DNA of 64,000 nucleotides from PVC group bacterium (GCA_024231215.1 JAAEQR010000206.1:3112-67111), one strand, 5' to 3'. Shown: positions 895 through 60,045, counted from the stretch's first letter. Made by a program: numbers and translations. Notes: generated by a model not told the origin, from the sequence alone.

Positions 895-1556
895 AAAAAA
901 CGATTATATTAACAACGGTTAATGATAATTTGTATTACCAAAATAATATGAAAGTTTTTCTTCAATCATTAAAGGAAAATGCTGCTGGAGAATTTGTAAG
1001 AATATATGTGGTTAATAATGAAAAAATTGAATGTGAATTAAAAAAAATAAACAAAAACATAGAAATCAAACATATAAATGAAAAGTTGAATCGTTCTCAA
1101 ATAATTATCAGAAACGCTTTATATTGCCATGAAGCATTAAAAGAAGGATATGAAAAAGTAGCTTGGATAGATAGTGATGTTATAATAAGGGCAAAATTAG
1201 GAGATTTTTGGGATGTTAAGCCCTGTGAATTAAAAGTGATTTACAGAAGAAAGAAAAAAGATCATATTAAGTTTCAGAGTGGTGTTTTTGTTATTGGGAA
1301 CTCATCAGAAATGAGAAAATATATTTGGAAATGGGCAAAAACGATTATTGATCTTAAAAAGGCCAAGTGGTATGATGGTCAGGAGTTAATGTGTGAATTG
1401 GTTTTAAAGTATAAAATAAAACAAATAGATATGCCTATTAAATATAATGATTCTAAGTTTAATGCCGATTCTGTAATTTGGCACTGCAAAAGTAGTCATT
1501 TTTCATATGAAAAGTATCAAAAGGAATATAGAAAATATCTTGAGGTAGTAAAATGA
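891..1556 (+). CDS. putative GT-A fold glycosyltransferase (DXD-type)
   Basis: N-terminal hydrophobic beta strand (IILTTVND) and an AWIDSDVII DXD-like motif. Start overlaps the previous stop (ATGA). The start at M891 is preferred over the 876 ORF start. Confidence 0.35.
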   Translation: MKKTIILTTVNDNLYYQNNMKVFLQSLKENAAGEFVRIYVVNNEKIECELKKINKNIEIKHINEKLNRSQIIIRNALYCHEALKEGYEKVAWIDSDVIIRAKLGDFWDVKPCELKVIYRRKKKDHIKFQSGVFVIGNSSEMRKYIWKWAKTIIDLKKAKWYDGQELMCELVLKYKIKQIDMPIKYNDSKFNADSVIWHCKSSHFSYEKYQKEYRKYLEVVK

Positions 1557-2179
1557 ATATATTTATAGATTGCGGAGCTTATAACGGTGATTCCATAAGA
1601 AAATTCCGTGAAAAGATAGATTATGAAAACAATAAAGATTCTTGGAGGTTTTACGCCTTCGAACCAAATCCTTATGTTGACATAGAATTGGAAAATGTTA
1701 TCATTATCAAGAAAGCTGTTTGGACAGAAGATTGTAAAAAGAAATTGTATTTCAGCAAAAGAAGCAAAAAAGATAATGTGACTACTCTGATGGAAAATAA
1801 AACCACACCACATTTGAATTTTAAAGATTATGCTGAGGTGGAATGTGTTGATTTGTCTTCGTGGCTATATAGAAATATAGACCTGGATGACCATGTAGTA
1901 TTGAAAATGGACATTGAGGGAGCTGAATATAATGTTTTGGCATGGATGGGCTACACTGATGTGTTGGCGTTGATTAATGAATTGTATTGTGAGTTTCACG
2001 TTAAAAAGTTAAAGATGGACCCACAAATACATTTAGATCTTATAAGAAGTCTCAAGGGAGAAACCTTAACATTGCACGGTGATCTAATCCCTTCAGTGAA
2101 ACATCCGGAATTTGCAGACATTGAGGCATATGTCAAATTAGGCGAAAGGCTTCTTAGAAAGTATAGGAGAGAAGCATGA
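1553..2179 (+). CDS. FkbM-family methyltransferase
   Basis: N-terminus FIDCGAYNGDSIRKF...FAFEPNP matches the FkbM domain signature (DxGAxxG ... xFEPxP). ATGA overlap with the upstream gene. Confidence 0.55.
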   Translation: MNIFIDCGAYNGDSIRKFREKIDYENNKDSWRFYAFEPNPYVDIELENVIIIKKAVWTEDCKKKLYFSKRSKKDNVTTLMENKTTPHLNFKDYAEVECVDLSSWLYRNIDLDDHVVLKMDIEGAEYNVLAWMGYTDVLALINELYCEFHVKKLKMDPQIHLDLIRSLKGETLTLHGDLIPSVKHPEFADIEAYVKLGERLLRKYRREA

Positions 2180-2667
2180 AAGGTAGACAGGCTTACCTTT
2201 TCGCTGGAGATACAAGGGTTGTGAAAACATACAAAAGTAATTACGTGAAGAACAAGCTGTCATCCGTAGAAAAAGAGATTGAGGTGTGGGGTGCTTTTAA
2301 TAGCAGACATTGCCCGGTTATTTATGATGTGTTTAACAATGGCTATATAATGGAAAAATACAACTATGCTTTAGGTGGCACCAAAGACATAAATATGGAT
2401 AGGGTTAAACAAACGCCTCTTGATTTAATCAAAGAATTAAACAGCATAGAAAGAGACTTAAAAAAATACAAGATAATCCACAGAGACATTAACCCCGGAA
2501 ACTTATTGTATTCTTCGAAGGAAAAATGTCTAAAGTTAATAGATTTCTACTGGGCTGTTTTTGAGGGTGAGAAATTGATAGATATACCAAAACTAAATAA
2601 ATACTATGGAAATGATAAAGAGGCTTTTGAAAAGTTAAGGAAACAGGTAAAATGGGCAAAGTCATAA
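2176..2667 (+). CDS. small protein-kinase-fold protein (Kdo/LPS-kinase or choline-kinase-like, putative sugar/alcohol kinase)
   Basis: Catalytic-loop motif IIHRDINPGNLL (HRDxxxxN) followed by LIDFYWA (DFG-like). Candidate beta3 lysine in VVKTYK. Only 163 aa, so it may be truncated or minimal. Confidence 0.4.
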   Translation: MKGRQAYLFAGDTRVVKTYKSNYVKNKLSSVEKEIEVWGAFNSRHCPVIYDVFNNGYIMEKYNYALGGTKDINMDRVKQTPLDLIKELNSIERDLKKYKIIHRDINPGNLLYSSKEKCLKLIDFYWAVFEGEKLIDIPKLNKYYGNDKEAFEKLRKQVKWAKS

Positions 2668-3560
2668 AGATATTATCAGAAACAGAAACAGAGAACTATA
2701 ATATATTTCCGCAAAGGCTGACATTGGAAAAGTGTGGTACGTTTCATTTGCATTATAGAAGCATTCGGATGGAATTTAAAGAAGAGGAATTTGTGGAATT
2801 TTGCAAATTAATCAAGAAAGGGTATTCTAACTGGAAAAATGGTGATGGAGTACCCGGTGACAAAGGGCATGTGTTTTTGAGCACTAAGCTTGTACCACCT
2901 GATGTTGTTGATAAAAACAAGTTAAAGGTTGAGTTATGTAACAATCAATACAAAAAACATGAAAAGGATATTTTTGGCAAGGATTCAAATTTCTTTAAAG
3001 ACAAAAGCTATATCCATGTTCACCACAGAAATATAAGACAAGAGTATTCATTGGCTGAGTTTAGAAAAATAATGGAATGTTATTCACGGGTGATATTGCC
3101 GTCGTCGGGATTGATAGAAATGTTTAAAAGTATACGATGCTTGGAGTATGTAGTTATAAGAAACTATGAAAATCTTCCTGAAAGTGTAGAATTTGGCCCT
3201 CACAGTGACTTGGATTTGCTTTTTGCTGATAAAGAAAATGTAAAAGAGTTTATAAGAATAACGAGTGCAGTGGCTACAAAAAAAGAGGGCTATAGAGTTC
3301 AGCACAAAGTTATGGTTGGGGATAATTTTATTTTGTGTGATTTGAGGGTTGTTGGTGATGATTATTTTCCCTATGAACTTGCAAGTTCGATGATAAATAA
3401 TCGAGTATGGTATAGACATTTTACTGTCCCAAGCGAGCAAGATCACTACGCAGGCTTATTATATCATGCACTTATTCACAAAAAAAGAGTATCAGAGGAT
3501 TATATGAAAAGATTGGGGCTGAAACGGCCTAAAGATAAGTCTGTGGGGTTTCATGTATAA
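2652..3560 (+). CDS. hypothetical protein; possible minimal nucleotidyltransferase fold
   Basis: FGPHSDLDLLF resembles the Pol-beta superfamily hG[GS]...DhD motif. Later GDDYFP. Weak. Overlaps the end of the kinase-like ORF by 16 nt. Confidence 0.35.
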   Translation: MGKVIKILSETETENYNIFPQRLTLEKCGTFHLHYRSIRMEFKEEEFVEFCKLIKKGYSNWKNGDGVPGDKGHVFLSTKLVPPDVVDKNKLKVELCNNQYKKHEKDIFGKDSNFFKDKSYIHVHHRNIRQEYSLAEFRKIMECYSRVILPSSGLIEMFKSIRCLEYVVIRNYENLPESVEFGPHSDLDLLFADKENVKEFIRITSAVATKKEGYRVQHKVMVGDNFILCDLRVVGDDYFPYELASSMINNRVWYRHFTVPSEQDHYAGLLYHALIHKKRVSEDYMKRLGLKRPKDKSVGFHV

Positions 3561-4923
3561 AGTAGGATTAATGGCAATTAGAGACTTCCCGTTGTGGAAA
3601 CAATGTTTGAAATCATTAGCATCACATGTTGATGAGCTGTATTTAAGATTCGACATGAGGACTGGTGATAAAAATATATTGCCGGAAATAGAGAGCTGTT
3701 GTGATGGCAAGCTAAAAAAGCTGATTAAAAGTGACATTGTTTGGGATAACCACAACTGGAAAGAGGAGTTACTAAGGATTTTAGATAGTGTACACCCGCG
3801 TGTTGTTTTGTTTCCTGATGAAGATGAAGAGTTTGACAGCGGAATAGAAAAAGACATTAAAAACTTTATGGATAGTGATTGCAAAGAAATGATATTTGAT
3901 TTTAAGACTATTCTACCAAAGGGTATAACAAAAGCCCCTTCTGAGGATGGGCGTGTATATCCTTTTACAAAACATGTAAAAGTTTTTAAGTGGAGGCCTG
4001 GATTAACATACATACCATACAAAAACAGAGGTAGGCTATTCACCTATTTGGATAATCCACAATATGAGGCAAAGTCAAAAATAACCCATTACCATTTTTA
4101 TACAATGGAACTTTACAACAAATGGAAAGACAGGCTACGCAACCGGTTTAAGCTGGAAGAAAATAAAAGGTTGTGCAACGGTCGAAAAACAATAGTTTAT
4201 ATTCTTGGCTCTACACGTAGTGGTAGTACAATGCTGGATTTGATGATTAGTTCCAATTCTGAATGTACAAGCTTGGGCGAGCTTTGCTTGTTACATAAAA
4301 GAGATTGTGGTTTTTGTGGAGCTAAATGCAAATATTGGAAAGAATACAAAAAGAAATTTAACGGCAATTACTATGAGACTGCATTTAAAGTGTTTAAAAA
4401 AGACATCCTTGTGGATTCCTCTAAGAAGTGGAAGTGGTTAAAAGAAAGGGCTGATAGTGAAAGCTATGAGTACAAAGTCATACATCTGGTTCGGAATGGT
4501 TTAGACAGGCTGAAGTTTAGAAAAGGAAAAAATGGGCACATAAAGCCTTATGTGGTGCAAGCCTGGGTTAACACTCACAGGAAGTGCGAGAAGGTACGAA
4601 AAAGGTATGGTGGGATATTGGTTAAGTATGAGGAAATCAACCAAGAAACTAATAGGATATATGAATATCTTGGTGTGAAATGGCAGGATAGAAAAGTGAA
4701 ATTTTGGGAGCACGAACACCACGGATTGCTAGGAAGCAAGACAGCCTATTCTTTAGTAAAAAAATGGCATAACAAAGAAAACGGTTGGTACAATATTTAT
4801 GCAGATGAACACGGATTTAATCTTAATCCACGCACTGGCCATGAATTTCTTAGCAAAGAAGATATTAAGGTGTTTAACAAATACGGTGGGCGTGAATTAA
4901 ATAAGGAGTTGGGGTATGAGTAA
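3553..4923 (+). CDS. two-domain protein with C-terminal sulfotransferase domain
   Basis: C-terminal half has a 5'-PSB-like loop IVYILGSTRSGSTMLD and a downstream 3'-PB-like HLVRNGLDR, as in PAPS-dependent sulfotransferases. The N-terminal 200 aa is unassigned and may be a glycosyltransferase-like domain. Confidence 0.5.
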   Translation: MYKVGLMAIRDFPLWKQCLKSLASHVDELYLRFDMRTGDKNILPEIESCCDGKLKKLIKSDIVWDNHNWKEELLRILDSVHPRVVLFPDEDEEFDSGIEKDIKNFMDSDCKEMIFDFKTILPKGITKAPSEDGRVYPFTKHVKVFKWRPGLTYIPYKNRGRLFTYLDNPQYEAKSKITHYHFYTMELYNKWKDRLRNRFKLEENKRLCNGRKTIVYILGSTRSGSTMLDLMISSNSECTSLGELCLLHKRDCGFCGAKCKYWKEYKKKFNGNYYETAFKVFKKDILVDSSKKWKWLKERADSESYEYKVIHLVRNGLDRLKFRKGKNGHIKPYVVQAWVNTHRKCEKVRKRYGGILVKYEEINQETNRIYEYLGVKWQDRKVKFWEHEHHGLLGSKTAYSLVKKWHNKENGWYNIYADEHGFNLNPRTGHEFLSKEDIKVFNKYGGRELNKELGYE

Positions 4924-5788
4924 AAAAGTACTTGTTACCGGAATCGCAGGCTTCCTGGGATCCCACATAGCAGAAAGATTAGTGGAGTTGGGATATGAGG
5001 TTGTAGGTGTAGATAATTTGTCTACTGGAAAACCAAAAAATATAAAGAAAATTTTTGATAAAATAGAATTCCATTGGATGAGCCTTGAACATTTTGATAT
5101 AGAAAACAAAGATATAGATATAATATGCCACCAAGCAGCGCTATGTAATGTCCCACATTCCATGAAAGACCCAGATGGATATTTTGAAAACAATGTAGCA
5201 GCAACACATAGAATGCTAATGGAAGCGCGTAAATACAATATCAAAAAAATAGTAATAGCTTCTTCAAGTGCTGCCGAAGAATGTATATCACCTTACGGAA
5301 TGTCTAAGAAGGTTACAGAAGATTATTCCAATCATTATAGAAACCTATATGATATGGATATAACAAACCTAAGATACTTTAATGTGTATGGCCCGAGGCA
5401 AAGCATGGACTCGCAACATTCTATGGTGATACCAATTTTTATCAATAAATTACTTAAAGGTGAAAGCCCAACTATTTATGGAGACGGAGAGCAAAGTCGG
5501 GATTTTATATATGTAGATGACGTGGTTGATGCTAATATTGCAGCAATTGAAGGCGATCATCAAGGCACTTGGGATGTGGGATCAGGGGAATCAACAAAAA
5601 TAATAGATTTATTTAACTGGATTAAAGCTTTAATTGGTGCTGAAGTTGATCCAATATTCACAAAAAAAAGGCCGGGAGATCCATTTGAAACGGAAGCGAT
5701 TGTGAGTGGTAGGTATTGGCAACCAAAAACAGACATGAGTGATGGACTTATAAAAACTATAGAATGGTGGAAGAATGAAAACGTGTAA
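4916..5788 (+). CDS. NAD-dependent sugar epimerase/dehydratase (short-chain dehydrogenase/reductase, SDR, family)
   Basis: Rossmann motif VLVTGIAGFLGSH (GxxGxxG), catalytic YGMSK (YxxxK), and length and architecture typical of UDP-sugar 4-epimerases. Confidence 0.8.
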   Translation: MSKKVLVTGIAGFLGSHIAERLVELGYEVVGVDNLSTGKPKNIKKIFDKIEFHWMSLEHFDIENKDIDIICHQAALCNVPHSMKDPDGYFENNVAATHRMLMEARKYNIKKIVIASSSAAEECISPYGMSKKVTEDYSNHYRNLYDMDITNLRYFNVYGPRQSMDSQHSMVIPIFINKLLKGESPTIYGDGEQSRDFIYVDDVVDANIAAIEGDHQGTWDVGSGESTKIIDLFNWIKALIGAEVDPIFTKKRPGDPFETEAIVSGRYWQPKTDMSDGLIKTIEWWKNENV

Positions 5789-5960
5789 AAATTGCACTTA
5801 TTGGGTTTCTAATAAAGACGAAAAAATGTTTTATCCAGAAACAGGTGATGGGCGATGCCATAGAAACGCTCCAATAGTAAGTAATGATGATCGTCACGAA
5901 TGGCCACCAACAATGGAAATGGATTGGTGTGGAGAATATAAAAAAAAGTTGGAAGAATGA
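5775..5960 (+). CDS. small Cys-rich protein (61 aa)
   Basis: CKNC...CHRNAP...WCGEY. Overlaps the epimerase stop. Member of a set of small Cys proteins scattered through the glycan locus. Confidence 0.4.
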   Translation: MKTCKNCTYWVSNKDEKMFYPETGDGRCHRNAPIVSNDDRHEWPPTMEMDWCGEYKKKLEE

Positions 5961-6104
5961 GTACGATTTACTCAAATGACATAGAAGTAATCTTAAAAGA
6001 TGGCAGCAGGCATAAAGGCACTATAGCCGCGATTAGATATATTGTTGACAAAGCTATTGATGAAAAGCTTGAGAAGATAATTAAAGAGTTGAGAGAGGCA
6101 AAGA

Positions 6105-7088
6105 ATGAGTAAAAATTGGCTCTTTTTAAGGGGTTATTTTGATCGCAACAACAAAAAATCACTAAAAAATGATTCTGACATGTGGGTACAATTGTTTTCC
6201 AAGTTAGTCCCGGATGGCATCACAATGCCAGATAGTGCAAACGGAGCAATATGCTATGTTGATTACAAGCAGACTATGCCGCAAATGTATGAGTATTTGC
6301 CAATAATTGGAAAAGAAAAAGCAAAGATGTTAGCAAAAGAATTTGACTACGTTTTCGCCAGAGGTGGCCACAAAGAATACGAGCCAATACTGAAGAAATG
6401 TAAAAACGCATACAAAATTTATTATGGTGCAGGAGCTCGCATAGTACCCGAAAAAGATTTAGGCTACAGTCTCATATTATGCGACTCTGAGGAACAGAAA
6501 AAGAAATGCAAGAAGAAATATCCACATATAAAAAGTTCTCTTTGGATAAAACCCGCAGCAAGACATTTCAAACCTGTTGAATGTGAAAAAGAATATGATG
6601 TATGTTACGTAGCTGATTGCCATAGTAAATTTCAGGAAAAGATTAAGCGCGTAAATTGGGTGTATAAGACAGCACCGAAAGACCTTAAAATACTTCATTT
6701 GGGGAAAAGTTCTATAAAACCGCCTAAGAATGTTACTGTTAAACGAGTGCAGAGGATTGATATGCCTAAGTGGTATTCTAAGTGTAAGGTGGGAATTGTT
6801 CCTTATAAGGGGTATGACAGTTGCCCTAGAGTAATTCCGGAGATGTTGGCTTGTGGGTTACCTTTGGTTGTTATGGATAGTGTTAATTTTTGGATAAAAA
6901 AGTATTTTTTCACATCCCCTTTCAAAGGTCGCAAAATAAACAAAAATGGGTTTTGGGAAATTGTTGGTGTTTATTTAAATCCTTACAAGCACAAAATAGA
7001 TTTTGTTGGCGAATTATCTGATTACTACCAAGAAAACCTCTCTCTCAAACCAGCAGCAGAACATTTAAGGAGTTTAATTAATGGATGA
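6105..7088 (+). CDS. putative GT-B fold glycosyltransferase (GT1/GT4-like)
   Basis: C-terminal VIPEMLACGLPLVVMDS resembles the conserved GT-B E..a.G.P motif. Size 327 aa. Confidence 0.45.
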   Translation: MSKNWLFLRGYFDRNNKKSLKNDSDMWVQLFSKLVPDGITMPDSANGAICYVDYKQTMPQMYEYLPIIGKEKAKMLAKEFDYVFARGGHKEYEPILKKCKNAYKIYYGAGARIVPEKDLGYSLILCDSEEQKKKCKKKYPHIKSSLWIKPAARHFKPVECEKEYDVCYVADCHSKFQEKIKRVNWVYKTAPKDLKILHLGKSSIKPPKNVTVKRVQRIDMPKWYSKCKVGIVPYKGYDSCPRVIPEMLACGLPLVVMDSVNFWIKKYFFTSPFKGRKINKNGFWEIVGVYLNPYKHKIDFVGELSDYYQENLSLKPAAEHLRSLING

Positions 7089-8310
7089 CAGAGCATTAGG
7101 ACAAATAATAACATTCTTTGAAGTGGTTAATGGCGCAAGTATGACAAGGACAAACAGGCCGCCTATGGGTGTATGGTTCTTAGAAAAAGAATCACTTATG
7201 GAATTTGTTATTAATAATAGAGTAATAACACCTATTAAAATAGGAATAACAGGCGCTCTTGATCCCAAAGCATTTGAAAAAATGTGTGAAAATTTCAGAG
7301 TGGGGTTTGAAGAAGGCAGAAAATGTAATTATATATTAAAAATAGAATCACAGACCGTATATGTTAATTTATACCAAGACAAAGGGTTTGGGAAGTTAAT
7401 AATAGCACCAAAAAGAATAATAGAAACAATAAACACAAGAAGAGACATGTCTATGTCAAGGTGGGGTACTTGGAAATATAAAATGGTTTATAATAAATGG
7501 TTTGAACTTTCTATACCATATAAATTTGGAACTGTTTTAGACATGCAGATACCTAACTGGATTACAAAGGTTAAGCATATTGAAAAAGAAAACTTAAACA
7601 AAAATGATAGTTTTTTTATTGGCAAGCGCGCTGAAAATGCTTTGGAATTAATGGCATTATTAAGAAGTTGTGCTACGGTGGCAGGGATTGAAAAGTATCT
7701 ATTTCTTGGATTTGGAACGTTGTTAGGTGTGGCTCGCGAAGGAGGTTTTATCCCCAATGATAGAGATTTAGACCATTGTGTGGCTGGTGAATATATAACA
7801 CCACACCAAGAAGAAAAGTTTCTTCAGGAAATAGCAAGGTCAAGAACTATTGACGGGAAAACTTATTCGAAAGGGCTGTATGAAGGAAGATGCAGAAAGC
7901 CAGTACGAAGGAGAGATGAGGGACAGCGGTTTTTGTGGACATCCTGTGGACACAAAAAAGTACACGGTCAAAAAGGGGTAAAATCATGCATATGGAAATT
8001 CTTTAAGCATGAAAAATATGATTGGCACTCAAAAGGCAGGCGCTGGATTAATACAAGAAAGTTTGATTATCAATTATATGATTATAATGGAGGTGAAGAT
8101 GCAATTGCAAAGGGAATACCAACAGGCTTGCTGGACCAGTTTAAAGAAATCAAATTTCATGGAGTCACAATAAACATACCCAAAAGAGTTGGTGCGTGTT
8201 TGGATGAATGGTATCCGGGTTGGGCACGACCAAAAAAAGGAGCAAGTGCAAAAAAGCATGTAATGGTTATTCCTGATTGGAAGAAGCCTAATGGGTGGAA
8301 GGTTTATTAG
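7081..8310 (+). CDS. LicD-family phosphotransferase-domain protein (CDP-alcohol phospho-group transferase)
   Basis: FLGFGTLLGVAREGGFIPNDRDLDHC matches the LicD/fukutin-like core (GTLLGAVRH.GFIPWDDDIDI). N-terminal about 180 aa unassigned. Confidence 0.5.
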   Translation: MDDRALGQIITFFEVVNGASMTRTNRPPMGVWFLEKESLMEFVINNRVITPIKIGITGALDPKAFEKMCENFRVGFEEGRKCNYILKIESQTVYVNLYQDKGFGKLIIAPKRIIETINTRRDMSMSRWGTWKYKMVYNKWFELSIPYKFGTVLDMQIPNWITKVKHIEKENLNKNDSFFIGKRAENALELMALLRSCATVAGIEKYLFLGFGTLLGVAREGGFIPNDRDLDHCVAGEYITPHQEEKFLQEIARSRTIDGKTYSKGLYEGRCRKPVRRRDEGQRFLWTSCGHKKVHGQKGVKSCIWKFFKHEKYDWHSKGRRWINTRKFDYQLYDYNGGEDAIAKGIPTGLLDQFKEIKFHGVTINIPKRVGACLDEWYPGWARPKKGASAKKHVMVIPDWKKPNGWKVY

Positions 8311-8327
8311 CACAAAACAAATAAAAG

Positions 8328-8356
8328 TTGACAAAATTAAGGAAATTATATATTAT
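8328..8356 (+). promoter_or_regulatory. sigma70-type promoter (TTGACA - 17 nt - TATTAT)
   Basis: Read directly: TTGACA at 8328-8333, 17-nt spacer, TATTAT at 8351-8356, in the gap after the last glycan-locus gene. Confidence 0.55.
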
Positions 8357-8362
8357 ATATGA

Positions 8363-8586
8363 ATAAGAGGACTATTCCAGATAAAACCGAAAGAGGGTTT
8401 CATTCATTAAAGCGGTTAAAGGAGAAAAGATTACCCGGTTCGATATGATTTCACACTAAAGGGCAAGGTGTTGTCGATCAAGTAGAGGTAAAATATAACT
8501 TAAAATAATTAACTAAAATAAACTGTTCACGTCAACGAAGGCGCTAGTTTGGGACTTAAGGTCTCAAGTTAGCGCCTTTTTTTATT
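8363..8586 (+). ncRNA. promoter-proximal leader transcript ending at an intrinsic terminator (lambda 6S/tR'-like arrangement), no ORF
   Basis: About 220 nt between the predicted transcription start and the terminator. It contains no ORF longer than 5 aa in the transcribed part. The next ATG (8588) follows the T-run directly. Confidence 0.3.
8539..8586 (+). terminator. rho-independent terminator
   Basis: GGCGCTAgtttgggacttaaggtctcaagtTAGCGCC stem followed by TTTTTTTATTT. Confidence 0.6.
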
Positions 8587-8587
8587 T

Positions 8588-8879: not shown

Positions 8880-10934
8880 ATGCCAAACATAATGAGAGCA
8901 GATTTTAGAGCAATAAAATCATCTGATTTTCAACGTGTGCAACAAATCTTCAAAGAACGTGAGGACGCACGTATATACCACCAAAGCAGCATAGACAGAG
9001 GTTTGAGGGCGTGGCGGTATTATTTTGCCCTTTCCGGGTATCAGTGGCCTGAAAAAGAGCTTGCTGTCTTGAAGGATGAGGACAGGCTACCATATCAATA
9101 TGATGTTATCTCACCAAAAATTAACACTATGGCCGGTGCAATTATAACTGATATGCAGGAGCCTAATTGGGTTCCTATCGAAGGCGAAAAGACTACAACG
9201 ACTGAAGCGGTCATTGATTGCTTTAGCAGCGACAAAGAATTAACTAATTGGGATCCGGTTATGGTCCAATGTGTTCTTGGTGGGCTAATCCATGAGTCGT
9301 GGATACAAATGATTGAGACCACTGAGTATAACCCTAGTGGAAATATCGGCTTAGAATATATACGAGATGGCTCGTTGATTACTGATTCGTATTGGAAAAG
9401 TAATAGTGACAAACAACTTAAAAAAGCATGGAAAAGCCAGTATTTTACCGCTGAAGGCCTTGCACATAAATATGACAAAATGAGCGACAAGATAAGGCAG
9501 GCAATTGAGCAAGAAAAAAAAGGTGTTGACGGTGCGCCTACAGATGCTGTAGAACAAAGACAAAAGTTTGCCGGAAAAGTTGGAGCTGAATATGAAGTTA
9601 TAGAGGAAATGTGGCTTGAAATCATAAAAACAAAACGCTTGGTAGGCAGAAAAGAGGGTGAGTTTAAAAGGATTCCATTTCCTGTAACCGACAACCGCGA
9701 ATATTTGGAATTGTTTGCCGAACAAAACGGCATTGATTGGGAGACCGTAGACGCAGAGCCTTATAATGATATTGTATATCACGCAACTGCTATTTGTCCT
9801 TCATTAGATCCGCACATAATACTCAATGATGAAAAGCCGCGAATCCAAGTTAAGAGATTGCCTATATTTCTTTTTACCACAAAAAGGCATGATGGTAAAA
9901 ATAAAGGACTTGTAGAATCTATAATGGATTTGCAAACCACTCTAAACAAAAGAGTTAATTTAGAATCGGAGTTGATTGATAAAGCTAATGGGGGAATGAC
10001 GATATTAAATGAAGACCTTTTCGATGGTGATACCATAAAAGAAGCTGAACTTCAAAAAAACCTTAACAATCCAAAAAAATCAATGTTTGCTCGTTTTACA
10101 CCGGGGGTTCCGACCAGAGAAGAAATAACTCCAAAACAATACCCTTCACAGATTATGACACAAATTGAGTTAATGCTTAATACGTTGCTGCCTATTACAA
10201 GTGGCGTTTCTGATGCGTGGAGTTCTGAGAGTTCACAAGGTGAAAGCGGAGTCCTTTATGAGCGTAAAGTCCAAATGAATAAAATCGGGACTCTTATAAT
10301 GGACAAAGCTGTTAAGCAATTAATTAATAATCTTGGCGAGGCCTATTATTATCAATGGCAAATAACATACGCAAAACTACCGCGAGAAATAACAAAGCGC
10401 GGCGGAAAAGAGAAAATAATTTTAAACGAGAGTTTGCCGGATGGTTCCATAAAAAACTCTGTTGAGTATACGCCTCGATGCAGGGTAATAGTTACAGAAA
10501 ATTTGCAGTCTTCTACGCAACAATTAAGAAAAAGAACTATGGCAACTGAAATGCTACCACAAATTAACCCAGAAACAAACCAGCTTACATTTCAAAAGTT
10601 TTTGGGGATGTTGGTAAAAAATGTTGATGGATTGTCTGATGAAGAAAAAGATGAGTTTGAAGAGACTTTGAAACTTGAAGAAGCGGTTGCCATGACATCT
10701 AATATCAATTTAATATCACAAAATATAGCTGCAACGAGTGGCGCGAGAGTAGCAAATGAACAAAGTCAAATGATGTTGGCTAAGATGGGCAATGAGCCAG
10801 GGGCCGGACAGGTTCAAGAGCAGATTACGCCTCCAGGTGAGCAGGTTCAGGATGTGGTTACGCCACCACCTATACAGCAGCCACAAGAAGCAGCGGCGGC
10901 GACAAGCCCAGATACAGAAGAGGTAACAATTTAA
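8880..10934 (+). CDS. putative portal protein (positional inference)
   Basis: 684 aa. It directly precedes the scaffold-like and capsid-like genes. Q/P-rich C-terminal tail. No motif verified. Confidence 0.35.
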   Translation: MPNIMRADFRAIKSSDFQRVQQIFKEREDARIYHQSSIDRGLRAWRYYFALSGYQWPEKELAVLKDEDRLPYQYDVISPKINTMAGAIITDMQEPNWVPIEGEKTTTTEAVIDCFSSDKELTNWDPVMVQCVLGGLIHESWIQMIETTEYNPSGNIGLEYIRDGSLITDSYWKSNSDKQLKKAWKSQYFTAEGLAHKYDKMSDKIRQAIEQEKKGVDGAPTDAVEQRQKFAGKVGAEYEVIEEMWLEIIKTKRLVGRKEGEFKRIPFPVTDNREYLELFAEQNGIDWETVDAEPYNDIVYHATAICPSLDPHIILNDEKPRIQVKRLPIFLFTTKRHDGKNKGLVESIMDLQTTLNKRVNLESELIDKANGGMTILNEDLFDGDTIKEAELQKNLNNPKKSMFARFTPGVPTREEITPKQYPSQIMTQIELMLNTLLPITSGVSDAWSSESSQGESGVLYERKVQMNKIGTLIMDKAVKQLINNLGEAYYYQWQITYAKLPREITKRGGKEKIILNESLPDGSIKNSVEYTPRCRVIVTENLQSSTQQLRKRTMATEMLPQINPETNQLTFQKFLGMLVKNVDGLSDEEKDEFEETLKLEEAVAMTSNINLISQNIAATSGARVANEQSQMMLAKMGNEPGAGQVQEQITPPGEQVQDVVTPPPIQQPQEAAAATSPDTEEVTI

Positions 10935-52662: not shown

Positions 52663-53244
52663 TTGATTAATGTGGCTACAAGAAAGAAAATATCCTCAAG
52701 AAAACTAACCCAAATGGAGCTTGCGTTCTGCTATGAATATGTAGCAAACAAGTTCAACGGGAAGCAGGCCGCAATAGCCGCTGGATACAGTGTAAAGACA
52801 GCAGAAGTACAAGCATCGGACTTATTAAGTAGACCTAAGCTGAAACTCAAGGTAAAGCAGCTCACAGATAAGTATCTAAAAAAGGTAGAATATACCGGCG
52901 AATCCATTCTAAACGAATTAGCAATATTAGGGTTTTCTGATATGAATGATATGTTAAACGAGGATGAAAATGGTGATTTAACATTGAAATCATTAAAAGA
53001 TATGGGATATAACACACGGTGCATCCAACAATTGGAAATAACTAATACAACGCGATCATTTAAGGACTCCACAGAGACCCAAACAGACCAAAAAATCAAA
53101 TTTAAGCTGTATGATAAGAGAGCAACATTAGAATTAATAGGAAAAAACCTACAGCTATTCACGGATAGAATACACCACACAGGTGAAGTGAACAACACAG
53201 TACAAGTATACATTCCTGATAATGGCCGAAATAACAAGGATTAA
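52663..53244 (+). CDS. terminase small subunit
   Basis: Immediately upstream of and overlapping the large terminase. N-terminal HTH-like segment KLTQMELAFCYEYVANKFNGKQAAIAAGYS, typical of small terminase subunits. Confidence 0.5.
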   Translation: MINVATRKKISSRKLTQMELAFCYEYVANKFNGKQAAIAAGYSVKTAEVQASDLLSRPKLKLKVKQLTDKYLKKVEYTGESILNELAILGFSDMNDMLNEDENGDLTLKSLKDMGYNTRCIQQLEITNTTRSFKDSTETQTDQKIKFKLYDKRATLELIGKNLQLFTDRIHHTGEVNNTVQVYIPDNGRNNKD

Positions 53245-55180
53245 ACCGCAGGCCGGCCCTCAAGAAAAGTTTTTATCATCCAATGCAGATATAGTAATAT
53301 TTGGTGGTGCAGCATACGGCGGAAAGTCATTTGGGTTGTTGCTGGAATCAATTAGATATATACAAGATCCACGATATAATGGAGTAATATTTCGAAGGGA
53401 ATCACCACAAATAACATCCGGTGGAGGATTATGGGATACGGCGGGGCAGATATATCCTCATGTGGGCGGAATAGCGAACGAGGGGAAATTAAAATACACA
53501 TTTCCTACAGGGGCATACAATAAATTCACTCATTTACAATATGAAAAAGATAAGCTTAATCACCAGGGTGCACAATATGTTTTTATAGGATTTGACGAAT
53601 TAACTCATTTTTCAGAAACACAATTTTGGTATCTGCTCACACGTAACCGCCCACCATCAGGATGTAATATCAGGCCATATTGTCGATGTACAACGAATCC
53701 GGAGGCTGATAGTTGGGTAAGAGAGCTAATAATATGGTGGATTGATGAAAACACAGGGTATGCTATACCTGATAGGTCTGGAATTGTACGATATTTTACG
53801 CGAATTGACGAAGAAATCATATGGGTGGATAAGGATTGGACAGATGAAAGCGGAAATAAGGCAAGGTCTATTACATTTATACCTTCATTTTTAGAAGATA
53901 ATCCATTGGGTATAGCTGCTGACCCTATGTATCAGAGCAACTTACAAGCACAAGATAAAGTAACACGTGAACGGCTATTGAAGGGAAATTGGAATATAAC
54001 ATATAAGGGTGGAATGATGAATCCAGGCTGGTTTAAGATCCTAGAAAATTTCCCGCCTATGAAATATGTACGGTATTGGGATAGGGCCGCGACTGAGCCC
54101 AAAGACGAAAATGATGACCCAGATTGGACGGTGGGGGCTAAGTGTGGGATGCATGGAGGGGAGTTATATATAGAGGATATAGTCCGTTTCCGTGATACTC
54201 CAGCCCAAAATGAGGAAAAAATATTAAATTGTGCGGATAATGACGGCTATGATGTGTCTATTGGGTATGAAATAGAACCTGGAAGCGCTGGCGTTGAAGT
54301 CGCCGAACATTATCAAACTAAGATATTGAAAGGTTATACGGTAATATTAGACAGGCCAAAAGGTAATAAAGTGGAGCGGTGTAAGCCCTGGGCGGCACTT
54401 GCGGAACATGCACATGTATACATCAAAAAAGCCGCTTGGAATAGGCAATTTCTTGCTGAAATAGGCAGTTTTCCACTTGAAAAAAAAGACCAAGTAGACG
54501 CGGTGTCCGGTGGATATAAGATGCTGACAAGAGATAAGTATATTTTTCCAGCATTTAAATTGTCGGATACAAAAAAAATAACAATAGAATGGGAACCCAA
54601 GAAAAGTAAGGCCCATATGCACCATTACGGAGCAATGGTACAACTGCCGGACATGAGCCTGTGGATGCTGGAGGTGTTGTATCATGCAATTGATAACAAA
54701 ATGTATGTATATGGGTGCTGGAAAACCAATAATCCGGCTCCTGCGCTGGTTGTGCCTGTGATAATTAGCAGAATGCATCTCAAAGAGTTCATGATTAAGC
54801 GCTTGTTGGTCTCAGATCACATAATGCATGCCATAGCGCCAAAAAAAGCACCGTATTATTTTTACCGCAAGGAATTTATCAAGAAAAAATGTAGGCCGAA
54901 ATTAAGTGAAAGTATATTATACGATGAATCAGGCTCAATTGTGATGGCTACTGAAATGTTTATGAGGCAGCAAATAATATTTAGCCATGAAGCTAAACCA
55001 GCAGCACAGCAGGTGTCGGGCTGGACAATTGACAAGGGGAAGCCGTCTAAGGAGAACAGTGCGTATTGCGAAGGCCTGCTAATGATTATATCAGAGCTGA
55101 AAAGGATGAGAATAATACAGAAAAAGCCACCCAAACCAAGGGATTATAAAATAGTTAGAACAGTTGCAAGAAATTTTTAA
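53222..55180 (+). CDS. terL: terminase large subunit
   Basis: Walker A-like ADIVIFGGAAYGGKSF near the N-terminus. Walker B-like FIGFDELTHF. 652 aa with a C-terminal nuclease-sized domain. Confidence 0.75.
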   Translation: MAEITRIKPQAGPQEKFLSSNADIVIFGGAAYGGKSFGLLLESIRYIQDPRYNGVIFRRESPQITSGGGLWDTAGQIYPHVGGIANEGKLKYTFPTGAYNKFTHLQYEKDKLNHQGAQYVFIGFDELTHFSETQFWYLLTRNRPPSGCNIRPYCRCTTNPEADSWVRELIIWWIDENTGYAIPDRSGIVRYFTRIDEEIIWVDKDWTDESGNKARSITFIPSFLEDNPLGIAADPMYQSNLQAQDKVTRERLLKGNWNITYKGGMMNPGWFKILENFPPMKYVRYWDRAATEPKDENDDPDWTVGAKCGMHGGELYIEDIVRFRDTPAQNEEKILNCADNDGYDVSIGYEIEPGSAGVEVAEHYQTKILKGYTVILDRPKGNKVERCKPWAALAEHAHVYIKKAAWNRQFLAEIGSFPLEKKDQVDAVSGGYKMLTRDKYIFPAFKLSDTKKITIEWEPKKSKAHMHHYGAMVQLPDMSLWMLEVLYHAIDNKMYVYGCWKTNNPAPALVVPVIISRMHLKEFMIKRLLVSDHIMHAIAPKKAPYYFYRKEFIKKKCRPKLSESILYDESGSIVMATEMFMRQQIIFSHEAKPAAQQVSGWTIDKGKPSKENSAYCEGLLMIISELKRMRIIQKKPPKPRDYKIVRTVARNF

Positions 55181-58256: not shown

Positions 58257-58639
58257 TACAACAAAAACCAAAAACAGCCAAGGGGTACTACTACTATCAT
58301 AGATTGATGTGGAGTAGGCTGGTTAAGGAGATGGAAAAGGGGAAAGTTCTTGACACTGGCTTAAAATACAGTGTATGGAATAGTTTGTTTGATTTTGATG
58401 GCGAGGAGTGCAATCACTGCTTTGCTTGCATGTGGAAAGATGATGATGTGACGGTTCGGGAGTATGTGTACTATATCGCCGAAGATGGCGATTGTGAAGA
58501 TGAGTGTTTGTTGCATTATACGCCAGAAGATGGAAAGTGCTTAGGTGGATTATACGAAGCAGCAACCGGAGTAAGTCAATACAGAATAGAAGCGGCTAAG
58601 GAAATACGTGATTTACCTATGAAGGATAAGTGGAAATGA
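58253..58639 (+). CDS. Cys-rich hypothetical protein (128 aa)
   Basis: CNHCFAC...CEDEC. ATGA overlap. Confidence 0.4.
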   Translation: MIQQKPKTAKGYYYYHRLMWSRLVKEMEKGKVLDTGLKYSVWNSLFDFDGEECNHCFACMWKDDDVTVREYVYYIAEDGDCEDECLLHYTPEDGKCLGGLYEAATGVSQYRIEAAKEIRDLPMKDKWK

Positions 58640-59662: not shown

Positions 59663-60045
59663 GTACAATATTATTTTCAGGGAGATTTGACAGGCCGCAT
59701 ATAGGGCATATGATTACTATTGGCAGGTTGGGACAGCAATATGATAAGGTAATTATTGTGGTGTTGGATTACCCAGAGCAGAAGTATCCAATAGATGAGC
59801 GGGTAAATACTTTGCGTAATGCTCTGTACCTAATGAGAATGAGAGGATCATATCAAATTGTGGTCTCAAAACACCATTTTGGTGAAATAGAGACAAAACA
59901 ATTAAAAGAAGAAATCCCCTGGTTTGATGTGTATGGCAGTGGCAATAGAGAGGTTTTGGAGAATATGAAACAAAATATATATCCAACACAAAGAGTAGAA
60001 CACATACCCCGATACCCCGGATATTCAGCGAGTGAGGAAGGGTGA
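59659..60045 (+). CDS. cytidylyltransferase-family nucleotidyltransferase (TagD/LicC-like, HxGH motif)
   Basis: ILFSGRFDRPHIGHM matches the (T/H)xGH signature of the cytidylyltransferase superfamily (GtFDllHaGH). 128 aa. Confidence 0.55.
   Translation: MSTILFSGRFDRPHIGHMITIGRLGQQYDKVIIVVLDYPEQKYPIDERVNTLRNALYLMRMRGSYQIVVSKHHFGEIETKQLKEEIPWFDVYGSGNREVLENMKQNIYPTQRVEHIPRYPGYSASEEG

Follow-up and report, generated by a model that had tools for sequence, protein, structure and literature searches.

Two putative phosphate-adding sub-modules in the glycan operon of an uncultivated tailed phage

A long operon of glycan enzymes probably lies between the terminase and portal genes of an uncultivated tailed phage. 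In the best overall explanation, which we hold with a little more confidence than doubt, the operon contains two sub-modules that would add phosphate. One consists of a LicD-family phosphotransferase and an HxGH-class nucleotidyltransferase; the other consists of a minimal protein kinase (mini-kinase), the protein NT2 and an FkbM-family methyltransferase. This explanation builds on observations of folds and motifs, of the intactness and conservation of the genes, and of gene adjacency and domain fusions. The original prediction had joined the kinase, a cytidylyltransferase and the LicD enzyme into one Lic-type pathway. All three ORFs were found intact on the + strand and conserved, as judged from motifs, Pfam and family alignments. 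Two-thirds of the pathway held, in that LicD and the nucleotidyltransferase are a conserved pair, but the kinase was found in a separate sub-module.

The glycan module and its possible target

The window (the whole stretch of DNA analysed, 64,000 nt) comes from a contig of 71,941 bp and represents most of a ~72-kb uncultivated tailed phage genome. The predicted phage context was borne out by TerS, TerL and the portal gene (Table 1) and by a virion structural protein also encoded in the window; portal orthologues in related contigs (L numbers) showed P22_portal Pfam matches. The hairpin downstream of LicD was the sole strong terminator-like site within positions 1-9000 and matched no Rfam family; it is likely the 3' boundary of the glycan transcription unit. 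The module is already under way at position 1 and runs past the end of the window. The nucleotidyltransferase gene lies outside the 2176-8310 span originally considered, 51 kb off in window coordinates. The two window ends probably belong to one glycan module, because both genes lie inside a single terminase-to-portal interval of ~27 kb in a 74-kb relative.

Table 1. Features of the glycan module and its boundaries in the window.
Feature	Position (nt)	Strand	Evidence or remark
FkbM-family methyltransferase	1553..2179	+	Methyltransf_21, 46.8 bits; stop overlaps kinase start by 4 nt
Minimal protein-kinase-like enzyme, 163 aa	2176..2667	+	K17, E34, H102-R103-D104, N109, D123
NT2, 302 aa	2652..3560	+	start overlaps kinase stop by 16 nt
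Two-domain protein, 456 aa	3553..4923	+	Sulfotransfer_3, 27.4 bits vs cutoff 27, aa 215-247
NAD-dependent sugar-nucleotide epimerase/dehydratase, GalE-like	4916..5788	+	Pfam Epimerase, E 2.4e-53
GT1/GT4-type glycosyltransferase	6105..7088	+	Glyco_trans_1_4, 26.6 bits vs cutoff 27
LicD/FKTN/FKRP-family phosphotransferase, 409 aa	7081..8310	+	Pfam, profile, fold; last gene of the module
Hairpin, 20-bp stem, 3-nt loop, then T-run	8537..8579	+	between LicD and head genes
Portal	8880..10934	+	phrog_156 portal, E 9.6e-24; downstream boundary of the module
TerS	52663-53244	+	Terminase_2, E 1e-23
TerL	53222-55180	+	phrog_979 TerL, E 1.7e-140
TerS and TerL together	52663..55180	+	upstream boundary of the module
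Putative GT-A-type glycosyltransferase, 288 aa	56792..57658	+	invariant TDxD motif; assigned by inference
GT2 glycosyltransferase	58630..59367	+	Glycos_transf_2, 64 bits; upstream of nucleotidyltransferase
HxGH-class nucleotidyltransferase, 128 aa	59659..60045	+	PF01467; HIGH at nt 59698-59709
GT9-like (heptosyltransferase-like)	60042..60821	+	Glyco_transf_9, 18.7 bits vs cutoff 22, weak
GT-B-type glycosyltransferase	61249..62265	+	phrog_2170 glycosyltransferase, E 3.7e-13
Sulfotransfer_2 ORF, partial	63436..64000	+	PF03567, 35.6 bits vs cutoff 22; leaves window end

The module is large and includes two methyltransferases, two sulfotransferase-like ORFs, an epimerase and at least six glycosyltransferase-like genes; overlapping start and stop codons connect its genes. 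The stop codon of the GT1/GT4-type gene, which has an orthologue in L006, overlaps the start of LicD by 8 nt. L004/L005 and L040 keep the order GT2, small ORF, nucleotidyltransferase, GT9-like gene, and GT9-like orthologues in L004-L007 and L040 are 42-47% identical. The putative GT-A-type protein matched nothing in Pfam or the PDB; D99 and D101 are invariant in its family alignment (A5), and tblastn found it on contigs with LicD and the nucleotidyltransferase (L001, L004/5, L007/33, L012/13, L016, L017/44, L039, L040, L045, L049 and L050). The epimerase matched TIGR01179 GalE with E 2.2e-41, under the equivalog cutoff. In the two-domain protein, the N-terminal domain (aa 4-187) corresponds to a separate gene in relatives (tblastn: L006, L007), and a PAPS-loop motif of sulfotransferases lies in the C-terminal half. 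The gene content of the module is hypervariable, resembling that of O-antigen loci.

The module is composed of soluble enzymes; no multi-pass membrane protein was found in the part of the glycan region covered by the window; the other 7.9 kb of the contig might encode a transporter or further genes of relevance. The same chemistry might serve to remodel host envelope glycans (O-antigen, capsule or teichoic-acid-like polymers) instead of virions, with enzymes acting on lipid carriers at the inner membrane face for superinfection exclusion or lysogenic conversion. We regard this as a serious, if tentative, possibility, lipid-linked intermediates of the host envelope being nearly as likely a target as virion proteins. 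To our knowledge, every bacterial LicD enzyme so far characterised has an envelope glycan as its target. An envelope-remodelling role was also proposed for phage licD by Benler et al. The glycan operon of L002/L003, a temperate relative, ends beside an integrase region; features such as the WbdD-like kinase-methyltransferase and the GT9-like protein are typical of LPS pathways, the variability noted above is O-antigen-like, and peripheral enzymes can work without transmembrane segments. However, the part of the module within the window showed no priming phosphoglycosyltransferase, flippase, polymerase or ABC transporter. Across relatives, moreover, the LicD pair usually lies between terminase and portal, in many cases immediately before portal, and the island, at ~20 kb or more, is far above the known seroconversion cassettes of 1-3 genes. 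The large viral glycan clusters with known targets, for example those of chloroviruses, mimivirus fibrils and mycobacteriophage capsids, decorate virions.

LicD and the nucleotidyltransferase form a conserved pair

The LicD assignment was confirmed by Pfam, motif and fold. The ORF, which includes GFGTLLGVAREGGFIPNDRDLDH, matched LicD (PF04991) with 32.8 bits against a cutoff of 22.6, the match being limited to aa 208-231, and also matched the Mf1 cholinephosphotransferase motif of NCBIfam. The catalytic domain (~aa 180-409) contains GFGTLLG at aa 210-216 and DRDLD at aa 227-231 (nt 7759-7773), and the N-terminal domain of ~175 aa is missing from short (~225 aa) relatives. In an alignment of 37 sequences (A2), D227, D229 and D231 were invariant and G-T-LLG...DxDxD was kept; the family profile aligned onto the catalytic motif of FKRP. 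Employing Foldseek, the check suggested with the original prediction, we compared the AF2 model (pLDDT 93.4) with the PDB: the best 13 matches were all FKRP (E 4e-6 to 2e-4), and the next folds had E 0.009 or worse. FKRP is the ribitol-phosphate transferase that uses CDP-ribitol. The best neighbours in BFVD were giant-virus proteins annotated as LicD family. We know of no characterised LicD donor that is not CDP- or GDP-linked.

The nucleotidyltransferase contains GRFDRPHIGH, with HxGH at aa 14-17, and matched CTP_transf_like (PF01467) with 26.9 bits (cutoff 21). The gene overlaps both its neighbours: the end of the upstream ORF at its own start, and the start of the GT9-like gene at its stop. 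The family, found here on phage-like contigs only, has 33 metagenomic members (A1), among which S7, G8, R9, F10, H14, H17, G95 and N96 are invariant. 'Cytidylyltransferase' is the name of a Pfam superfamily with no demonstrated specificity. The nearest solved relatives were the archaeal NMNAT MJ0541 (E 1.6e-6) and PPAT (1e-5), with TagD at just 0.12; PPAT was matched by 29 of the 33 members, NMNAT by 18 and TagD by one. The GRF...HxGH and SGN motifs are shared with archaeal NMNAT. Judged by sequence, the enzyme is nearer the NMNAT and PPAT adenylyltransferases of cofactor metabolism than TagD, so the 'cytidylyl' label is unproven, and a cofactor-type substrate may be used. The 'Lic-type' label likewise found no support, the fold being HxGH, unlike that of LicC.

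We examined ~22 distinct related contigs with a full-length member of the nucleotidyltransferase family. In 15 of these (L002/13/41, L006/32, L012/42, L014, L015, L016, L017/44, L018, L019 and L045-L050), a LicD-family gene lies no more than 1.5 kb from the nucleotidyltransferase gene, with gene order and even strand varying. The distance is 3-6 kb in L001 and L004/L005. In L011+L039, LicD and the nucleotidyltransferase occupy opposite ends of one terminase-to-portal island. The window shows this arrangement too: the two genes are separated, and translational coupling links the nucleotidyltransferase to the GT9-like gene. LicD orthologues are 29-47% and portals 27-52% identical; these contigs are therefore not near-duplicates. 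L019 has two LicD paralogues and the nucleotidyltransferase between TerL and portal, an interval in which no glycosyltransferase was recognised. An adjacent pair of licD and ispD has been reported in some 'Flandersviridae' phages (PMC8008677). A giant virus likely carries an IspD-LicD fusion. Based on the proximity in 15 of ~22 contigs, it is well supported that LicD and the nucleotidyltransferase form a conserved two-gene unit for NDP-X synthesis followed by phospho-X transfer, and we propose the nucleotidyltransferase as the NDP-X synthase supplying the LicD donor. A PPAT-type enzyme had been named in advance as grounds for rejecting the route; the protein is indeed PPAT/NMNAT-like by sequence, but its genomic context links it to LicD, not to cofactor metabolism.

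The mini-kinase belongs to a separate sub-module

The kinase ORF has IHRDINPGN at aa 101-109 and IDFYW at aa 122-126, and its C-lobe has nothing past ~40 aa after the DFx motif. Pfam matches were near or below cutoffs only (Pkinase 28.3 bits, Choline_kinase 23.9, RIO1 22.4). Every catalytic residue is invariant and the short size is kept in its family (A3; 10 clusters, 154-163 aa); the ORF is therefore not the truncated pseudogene that might have been feared. The AF2 model, of moderate confidence (pLDDT 70), has a generic minimal protein-kinase fold, with Foldseek matches to Rio2, ULK2, OspG, WbdD, CK2 and NleH. The expected choline-kinase-like fold was not recovered: neither choline kinase nor APH was among the best 50 structural matches.

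The kinase-NT2 order, with overlapping neighbours, is found in the window and in the two closest kinase-bearing relatives, L006/L032 and L007/L033. The N-terminal half of NT2 contains an internal repeat (HLHYRSIR / HVHHRNIR), and its C-terminal half has LRNxExLP...HxDxDxL, a motif resembling nucleotidyltransferase-fold proteins. NT2 showed a weak DUF4269 match and nothing stronger, no similarity to the PDB or LicD, and no recognisable fold relative. Its best relatives (n=943 in all) are N-terminal domains of giant proteins with Pkinase/RIO, TPR, GT2 and GT1 domains; in ~45 of 150 family representatives, a kinase domain matching profile A3 lies just C-terminal to NT2. The kinase may work with the FkbM methyltransferase, a candidate partner for methylating a phosphate or a sugar. 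Fusion of the entire mini-kinase to a class I methyltransferase-like domain (weak Pfam matches, E 6e-4 to 6e-3) occurs in five more distant phage contigs, where the fused genes are flanked by GT-D-like or GT2 genes. This architecture resembles that of the O-antigen terminator WbdD. WbdD was among the best structural neighbours of the kinase model but was not recovered by sequence search, so the parallel is one of architecture and general fold, not specific homology. By analogy with the WbdD architecture, the enzyme probably acts on a glycan, as a sugar-hydroxyl kinase, and not on an alcohol.

The predicted three-step route, in which the kinase would phosphorylate a free alcohol (choline, glycerol or ribitol), the HxGH enzyme would form the CDP-alcohol and LicD would transfer the phospho-alcohol, appears improbable. 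The three genes are intact on the same strand of one glycan module and occur together also in L006/L032. From sequence reading, the lysine that Ser/Thr protein kinases typically have is missing from the HRDINPGN loop, and IDFYWA is similar to IDFEYA of choline kinase; the Choline_kinase model matched the catalytic loop weakly (E 3e-5), its score being below the cutoff of 29. Eukaryotic CCT, the enzyme of CDP-choline synthesis, is an HxGH enzyme. However, kinase homologues were found in just 2 of the ~22 nucleotidyltransferase-bearing contigs and are missing from nearly all of those with the LicD pair, minimal ones included; the conserved partners of the kinase are NT2 and methyltransferases, and it has no counterpart of the helical C-terminal lobe by which choline kinases and APH enzymes bind their substrates. 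The kinase belongs to a sub-module separate from the LicD pair and is not supported as the first step of that route.

Other possible roles for the HxGH enzyme

We give little credence to the idea that the HxGH enzyme, like RfaE domain II, is the source of an NDP-sugar (e.g., ADP-heptose) for the downstream GT9-like transferase, with the LicD donor coming from the host. RfaE domain II is similar in size and likewise an HxGH enzyme, GT9-fold enzymes, protein-heptosylating ones included, use ADP-heptose, and the gene overlap and conserved order described above would agree with such a role. However, RfaE_dom_II matched one of 33 family members (E 0.003), the GT9 assignment is itself under threshold, and the nucleotidyltransferase adjoins LicD in 15 contigs versus the GT9-like gene in 3. 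In L006, the GT9-like gene is 14 kb from the nucleotidyltransferase, which LicD paralogues adjoin; GmhA, HldE-kinase and GmhB genes were not seen. Least probable is a stand-alone metabolic or counter-defence gene restoring NAD+ (NMNAT-like) or CoA (PPAT-like), with LicD nearby by chance: phage NAD+-reconstitution pathways are known, the closest sequence relatives and the SGN motif would fit, and the sole cultured-phage match is annotated as PPAT (Myxococcus phage Mx1), but the scores are far under family cutoffs (NMNAT 30 bits vs 127, PPAT 24 vs 103), the gene sits among glycosyltransferases and adjoins LicD in many divergent contigs, and no Nampt, Nudix or other NAD-salvage partner was found in the window or the loci examined.

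Proposed mechanism

In the mechanism that we propose for the two sub-modules, the terminase genes would be followed by a long operon of soluble glycan enzymes ending at the hairpin terminator before portal. We infer its chemistry, the identity of X, the use of ATP or CTP and, entirely, the acceptor. The nucleotidyltransferase would condense NTP and X-P to NDP-X and pyrophosphate, X-P being most simply a host metabolite, e.g., a polyol or alcohol phosphate. The LicD/FKRP-fold enzyme, through its DxDxD metal site, would then move phospho-X to an acceptor hydroxyl with release of NMP, giving a substituent attached through a phosphodiester, of the teichoic-acid, phosphocholine or ribitol-phosphate type. 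The mini-kinase would not feed this route; together with NT2 and the FkbM methyltransferase, it would most likely phosphorylate a sugar of the growing glycan directly, and the sugar phosphate would be methylated or further substituted, a step likened to that of the kinase-methyltransferase WbdD, which caps O-antigen chains. As to where such a glycan would be built, we weakly prefer, at slightly less than even confidence, assembly in the cytoplasm on virion proteins.

Pairing of the LicD and nucleotidyltransferase genes

Using tblastn and family HMMs, we surveyed 50 loci for genes of the HxGH nucleotidyltransferase (NTase) and the LicD/FKRP-fold transferase (LicD). A LicD-family gene was located no more than 1.5 kb from the NTase gene in 15 distinct contigs, in either order and once on opposite strands, usually between TerL and the portal gene; in two or three further contigs, a divergent LicD paralogue lay 3-6 kb away. 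LicD was missing from the vicinity of the NTase gene only in very short fragments and in the available sequence of one related contig (L007/L033). The LicD orthologues were 29-47% identical to LicD of the window, and the portals 27-52%; therefore, these contigs represent diverged phages. LicD and the NTase form a genuine, conserved pair, and in many uncultivated phages the cassette is found at a conserved position, with packaging genes on one side and head genes on the other. The original prediction had joined a kinase, a cytidylyltransferase and LicD into a three-enzyme Lic-type route via CDP-activated alcohols. The three ORFs were found with the motifs described for them; the pairing of LicD with the NTase stood, whereas membership of the kinase did not.

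On one contig (L019), a minimal cassette between TerL and the portal gene consists of the NTase and two LicD paralogues of 202 and 224 aa, with no recognised glycosyltransferase in the interval. This arrangement recalls the tandem action of FKTN and FKRP. In a 68.5-kb relative (L002/L003), the glycan operon ends in LicD and the NTase beside a minus-strand block. Because this adjoining block includes a phage integrase, the relative is regarded as temperate, and the position of its operon resembles that of lysogenic-conversion cassettes.

Features of the window and of related contigs
Feature	Location	Strand	Remarks
FkbM methyltransferase	1553-2179	+	
Mini-kinase	2176-2667	+	163 aa
NT2	2652-3560	+	302 aa
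Sulfotransferase-like ORF	3553-4923		Sulfotransfer_3 PAPS-loop motif in C-terminal half of a 456-aa two-domain protein
LicD	7081-8310	+	409 aa
Sigma-70-like site	8328-8356		near-consensus, TTGACA-17-TATTAT
Hairpin terminator	8537-8579		20-bp stem, T-run
Portal	8880-10934	+	followed by large structural genes
C-terminus of portal	10800-10934		Pro-, Gln- and Thr-rich
Repeat-rich protein	11415-12764		449 aa
Multi-pass membrane protein	39512-40258	-	4 hydrophobic segments
TerS	52663-53244	+	Terminase_2, E 1e-23
TerL	53222-55180	+	phrog_979, E 1.7e-140
TDxD protein	56792-57658		288 aa
NTase	59659-60045	+	128 aa
Cys-rich ORF	60818-60991		CxxC...CxxC
Cys-rich ORF	61097-61297		CxxC...CxxC
Cys-rich ORF	62265-62636		CxxC...CxxC
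Protein amid glycan genes	62655-63272		205 aa
Partial sulfotransferase ORF	63436-64000		Sulfotransfer_2, 35.6 bits (cutoff 22)
Minimal cassette	L019:1622-3928		
LicD-NTase end of glycan operon	L002/L003:10516-12726		
Kinase-methyltransferase-like fusion	L034:10001-11179		
Kinase-methyltransferase-like fusion	L035:3326-4531		
Kinase-methyltransferase-like fusion	L036:1713-2960		
Kinase-methyltransferase-like fusion	L037:2479-3675		
Kinase-methyltransferase-like fusion	L038:9827-11074		

The LicD-family protein

Pfam LicD (PF04991) matched the protein above threshold (32.8 bits versus 22.6, E 9.8e-8), with only aa 208-231 (24 residues) aligned, and the NCBIfam Mf1 cholinephosphotransferase motif was also found (E 4.9e-8). 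Because the above-threshold Pfam match spans only 24 residues, the fold was tested. With an AlphaFold model of pLDDT 93.4, ranks 1-13 of the Foldseek search against the PDB were all FKRP chains (E 4e-6 to 2e-4, ~210 residues aligned), followed by other nucleotidyltransferase-fold proteins at E 0.009 or worse. The metal-binding motif (G-[ST]-LLG ... DxD(xD)) aligns with the catalytic motif of FKRP, which was the sole meaningful PDB match of the profile. Among 37 homologues of 224-431 aa, none of them from a cultured organism, GxxLG...DxDxD (G212, L215, G216, D227, D229 and D231) and WHxKG are invariant. An additional domain, absent from the short relatives, is made up of the 175 residues at the N-terminus. 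At the level of motifs and predicted fold, membership in the LicD/FKTN/FKRP family is established. The enzyme would putatively use an NDP-linked donor and transfer its phospho-alcohol or phospho-sugar to a hydroxyl of a glycan, an activity supported indirectly by the nucleotidyltransferase genes adjacent to LicD in related contigs.

No LicD relative was found in cultured phages by tblastn. When viral contigs were scanned, LicD as a single sequence retrieved no relatives, and alignment-based scans did. Among viral models (BFVD), the best matches were annotated LicD proteins of giant viruses. Another match (E 7e-4) was A0A2H4UTB4 of Bodo saltans virus, a 456-aa protein annotated as MEP cytidylyltransferase, which is probably an IspD-LicD fusion; if so, it would provide a Rosetta-stone link for the combination of an activating enzyme with LicD.

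The HxGH nucleotidyltransferase

The NTase carries the motif GRFDRPHIGH at aa 8-17 and matched PF01467 above threshold; 'cytidylyltransferase' is simply the name of this Pfam family. With both the single sequence and a 33-member profile, the best matches were the archaeal NMNAT MJ0541 (full length, E 1.6e-6) and PPAT (1e-5). The profile also aligned over its full length with the TagD structure 1COZ (residues 4-122 versus 2-122), at an E value of only 0.12. PPAT models matched 29 of the 33 members and NMNAT models 18, while TagD and RfaE domain II matched one each, and all scores were far under the curated cutoffs. The NTase of the window scored 30.4 bits with NF002243 (NMNAT, cutoff 127) and 24.4 with TIGR01510 (PPAT, cutoff 103.3) but gave no match to TIGR01518 (TagD), whose single match in the family had an E value of 1.6e-4.

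Compared with TagD/GCT, the NTase belongs to the same superfamily, is of similar size (128 versus 129 aa) and shares the HxGH motif, a Rossmann-like domain of about 130 aa and a similar spacing of the C-terminal R-x-x-G-h-S-x-S/T; however, it has SGN where TagD has GDDW. Assignment to TagD/GCT-CCT is not supported, given the one TIGR01518 match among 33 members and the better scores of NMNAT and PPAT. The predicted cytidylyl specificity, and with it the 'CDP' label, is unsupported for the same kind of reason, TagD being outscored by archaeal NMNAT. The GRF...HxGH and SGN motifs are common to the family and archaeal NMNAT. Membership in NMNAT or PPAT is likewise not supported: the scores lie below the cutoffs, and the loci examined showed no context of NAD or CoA metabolism. 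At every locus examined, the neighbours were glycosyltransferases and LicD. The family is thus a distinct HxGH subfamily, apparently undescribed before.

In a profile scan of species-representative genomes, full-length members were found only on L049 and L050, both phage-like contigs with LicD adjacent; the remainder were mostly N-terminal HxGH-only matches to cellular PPAT-like genes, in Dehalococcoidia and Ilumatobacteraceae. L049 and L050, from a Paceibacterota and a Saprospiraceae MAG, respectively, seem to be further phage contigs of this kind that ended up in MAGs. The only tblastn match in cultured phages was a gene of Myxococcus phage Mx1 annotated as PPAT. From gene context and family chemistry, we infer that the NTase makes the NDP-linked donor used by LicD.

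The mini-kinase and NT2

The kinase-like protein (mini-kinase) had been proposed as the first step of the LicD route, with a truncated pseudogene as the refuting case. In 10 clusters of mini-kinases, length (154-163 aa) and catalytic residues are kept, with K17, E34, H102, D104, N109 and D123 invariant; it is not a pseudogene. The catalytic set (beta3 Lys, alphaC Glu, HxD, catalytic-loop Asn and DFG Asp) is complete and places the protein in the PKL superfamily. A complete C-lobe (activation segment, APE, helices F-I) is missing: DFx is followed by one low-confidence helix, and the protein ends about 40 aa on. The model (pLDDT 70) shows a minimal kinase fold with Rio2, ULK2, OspG, MELK, WbdD, CK2 and NleH as best neighbours; the matches to Rio2, OspG and CK2 were essentially certain. 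Pkinase scored 28.3 bits (cutoff 31.7), and the protein was likened to the minimal kinases OspG, NleH and Rio. Choline_kinase (PF01633) scored 23.9 bits (cutoff 29) over the catalytic loop only. With this score below the cutoff, the C-lobe missing and neither choline kinases nor APH enzymes among the 50 best fold matches, the choline-kinase-like label could not be kept.

The mini-kinase is present in only two LicD- or NTase-bearing contigs (L006/32 and L007/33), and its partners are NT2 and methyltransferases, which argues against a step in the LicD route. NT2 lies directly 3' of the mini-kinase in these two contigs and in the window, where the FkbM methyltransferase gene overlaps the mini-kinase start. 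The closest of the 943 NT2 relatives are N-terminal domains of giant proteins, in which Pkinase/RIO, TPR, GT2 and GT1 domains follow, and about 45 of the best 150 relatives contain a domain matching the phage kinase profile. In five more distant phage contigs, a complete mini-kinase forms the N-terminal domain of proteins of 392-415 aa, whose C-terminal half resembles a class I methyltransferase (weak Pfam matches and a visible motif I). The fusion genes adjoin GT-D-like or GT2 genes, and one of the contigs is 255 kb long. These fusions point to glycan phosphorylation. With partners other than those of LicD and the NTase, the mini-kinase was assigned to a separate sub-module, which would phosphorylate the glycan itself.

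The NT2 family is unannotated. It has a C-terminal domain of ~130 aa with LRNxExLP...HxDxDxL, often fused with kinase, TPR and GT2/GT1 domains in proteins as long as 3793 aa (among the relatives P0084-P0230); one that has a named source is a hypothetical protein from Deltaproteobacteria bacterium Smac51. An internal repeat (FHLHYRSIRMEF / IHVHHRNIRQEY) is located in the N-terminal half of NT2. As a candidate second LicD-like enzyme, NT2 was rejected: in hhalign, the relation was improbable, and no PDB relative was found.

WbdD, the chain terminator of the E. coli O9a O-antigen, is a kinase-methyltransferase that phosphorylates and methylates the terminal sugar of the O-antigen. In both WbdD and the phage system, a domain of protein-kinase fold goes together with a methyltransferase, within a cluster of glycan genes. 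WbdD is one of many kinase-fold proteins among the best structural neighbours of the mini-kinase model; at the sequence level, it was absent from the top 60 matches of the mini-kinase and the kinase-methyltransferase fusion. In the phage fusions, the domain order is reversed and there is no specific sequence homology; the mini-kinase is much smaller, lacks most of the C-lobe and has a conserved partner, NT2, that WbdD does not have. The likeness to WbdD is an analogy of architecture and general fold only.

Phage setting and layout of the glycan island

The genes for TerS, TerL, portal and virion protein mark the window as phage DNA. Proteins identical to those of the window are recorded for a contig of 71,941 bp that was assigned to the MAG of a 'PVC group bacterium'; this source contig is a phage genome deposited inside the MAG. 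Megablast of positions 1-12000 against cultured phages gave no match, and related contigs (62-74 kb) from IMG/VR and metagenomes have TerL, portal and glycan genes in common with the window.

From TerL to the end of the window, ORFs on the plus strand are tightly packed or overlapping and mostly encode glycan enzymes. The same packed style is found from the start of the window to the end of LicD, and the portal and structural genes come next. In a 74-kb relative (L039 + L011), the NTase gene near TerL and LicD just before the portal lie ~23 kb apart in one terminase-to-portal interval. Considering this layout and the partial sulfotransferase as the last ORF of the window, the two ends most probably belong to a single module through which the window boundary cuts. 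Within the window, the island contains at least six glycosyltransferase-like genes (GT2, GT9-like, GT-B/phrog_2170, GT1, GT8-like and the TDxD protein), two methyltransferases, a GalE-like epimerase and two sulfotransferase-like ORFs; the latter two together suggest sulfated glycans. In relatives, aminotransferases, acetyltransferases, radical-SAM enzymes and oxidoreductases are brought in instead; the island, with these differing enzyme sets, is therefore hypervariable. Framed by the LicD-NTase cassette, it is, to our knowledge, among the largest for any tailed phage.

The TDxD protein, in which this motif is invariant, co-occurs with LicD and the NTase in at least 11 contigs. Pfam and PDB searches gave no match for its family, except that one member weakly matched GT49 (E 0.005); it may represent an unrecognised GT-A glycosyltransferase family. 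The three small Cys-rich ORFs, apparently paralogous and scattered among glycosyltransferase genes, may encode zinc-ribbon proteins. The 205-aa protein had no family match; it is 28-35% identical to proteins on four related contigs (L004-L007), always amid glycan genes.

No multi-pass membrane protein is encoded in the part of the glycan module within the window; the only one of the window lies outside the module and weakly matched Lycopene_cyc (E 4e-4). The 449-aa protein between the portal and a putative capsid gene contains repeats rich in Glu, Thr, Pro and Ala (ETPAEETPPAEETPAAETPAEEAP). These repeats and the portal C-terminus might be tracts of the O-glycosylation type, or no more than acidic regions like those of scaffold proteins. 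LicD and the head genes are separated by 277 nt, and this gap contains both the sigma-70-like site and, ~180 nt on, the hairpin 3' of LicD; they could be just a terminator or give rise to a small transcript. An Rfam scan found no family in the LicD-to-portal intergenic region, and the window has no tRNAs.

Comparison with known systems

In the Lic phosphocholine pathway (LicA-LicB-LicC-LicD) of Haemophilus influenzae and Streptococcus pneumoniae, as in the phage, a LicD-family transferase is combined with a donor-activating enzyme, and the product would be a phosphodiester-linked glycan substituent. However, the activating enzyme of the phage has an HxGH fold and LicC a GlmU/IspD-like NTP_transferase fold. 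A LicC-type step is not supported: the NTase is of the PF01467 class, and the scanned ORFs of the window included none with an NTP_transferase fold. Within the window, the module encodes no LicB choline permease. LicA is a choline kinase, whereas the phage kinase is a protein-kinase-like stub not genetically coupled to the pair.

In the modification of alpha-dystroglycan, ISPD synthesises CDP-ribitol, FKTN and FKRP transfer ribitol phosphate in tandem, and POMK acts as a glycan kinase. FKRP is the only solved structure strongly matched by the LicD model, some phage relatives have two LicD paralogues beside the activating enzyme, like FKTN and FKRP, and the dystroglycan pathway, too, includes a distinct enzyme of protein-kinase fold, whose substrate is a sugar and not the alcohol. 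Unlike ISPD/FKRP, the phage system is phage-encoded and soluble, its activating enzyme belongs to another superfamily, and the identity to FKRP is only 14-19%.

An adjacent licD + ispD pair has been described in some 'Flandersviridae' gut phages and reported as not seen in phages before (Benler et al. 2021, PMC8008677). That cassette is located in the replication module of Bacteroides phages. Both systems are two-gene cassettes of LicD and a nucleotidyltransferase. The partner is HxGH here but IspD-family there, and the cassette here lies between terminase and portal and in some phages is split and expanded into a glycan island of at least 20 kb.

Mycobacteriophages glycosylate capsid and tail, and chloroviruses and mimiviruses have glycan clusters including LicD-family genes. 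The machinery here is likewise virus-encoded, soluble and export-free, and giant-virus LicD is its closest viral structural match. Compared with mycobacteriophages, which have 2-3 glycosyltransferase genes, the island is far larger, and virions are only a possible target; compared with giant viruses, the host is bacterial.

Possible targets and significance

A target in the cytoplasm, such as virion proteins, is favoured by the position of the island and by the lack of export genes within the window. The precedent of LicD, the integrase-adjoining temperate relative and LPS-like features favour host envelope intermediates. That the glycosyltransferases serve DNA hypermodification is unsupported: the scanned minus-strand genes, which include those for DUF6745 proteins and the ERF and YqaJ recombination genes of the block at 36-52 kb, encode no hydroxymethylase, no TET/JBP-like protein and no other enzyme of base modification.

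We infer every chemical step in this scheme of LicD, the NTase and the mini-kinase. One reading, rather unlikely in our estimate, is that the cassette, so far only on phage-like contigs and consisting of a LicD-fold phosphotransferase and a new HxGH subfamily in the terminase-portal slot, builds teichoic-acid-like phosphodiester decorations on virion proteins or virion-bound glycans, perhaps as short poly(alcohol-phosphate) chains where there are two LicD paralogues. In some lineages, including this one, the cassette would be split by an insertion of ~20 kb or more that encodes soluble glycan enzymes (glycosyltransferases, methyltransferases and sulfotransferases) together with a kinase module like WbdD. 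If so, tailed-phage particles would bear a complex phosphorylated and sulfated glycan coat made wholly in the cytoplasm.

LicD with a donor-making nucleotidyltransferase follows the known logic of phosphocholine, ribitol-phosphate and glycerol-phosphate decoration. Here, the putative donor-making enzyme comes from a different superfamily, and its family has been seen only on phage-like contigs. The biology behind this holds more interest than a mere copy of the Lic pathway would. The analysis also points out two unstudied families, NT2 and that of the TDxD protein, together with a conserved mini-kinase. If the virion is the target, particles could be covered with complex phospho- or sulfo-glycans, with consequences for adsorption, persistence in the environment, recognition by the immune system and the engineering of phages; if the host envelope is the target, this would be seroconversion at an unprecedented scale. 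HxGH 'tagD/GCT' auxiliary genes of unclear function have been annotated in marine phages (PMC6918029, PMC11515562). With either target, these unexplained 'tagD/GCT-like' genes of marine virome studies would gain a concrete putative function.
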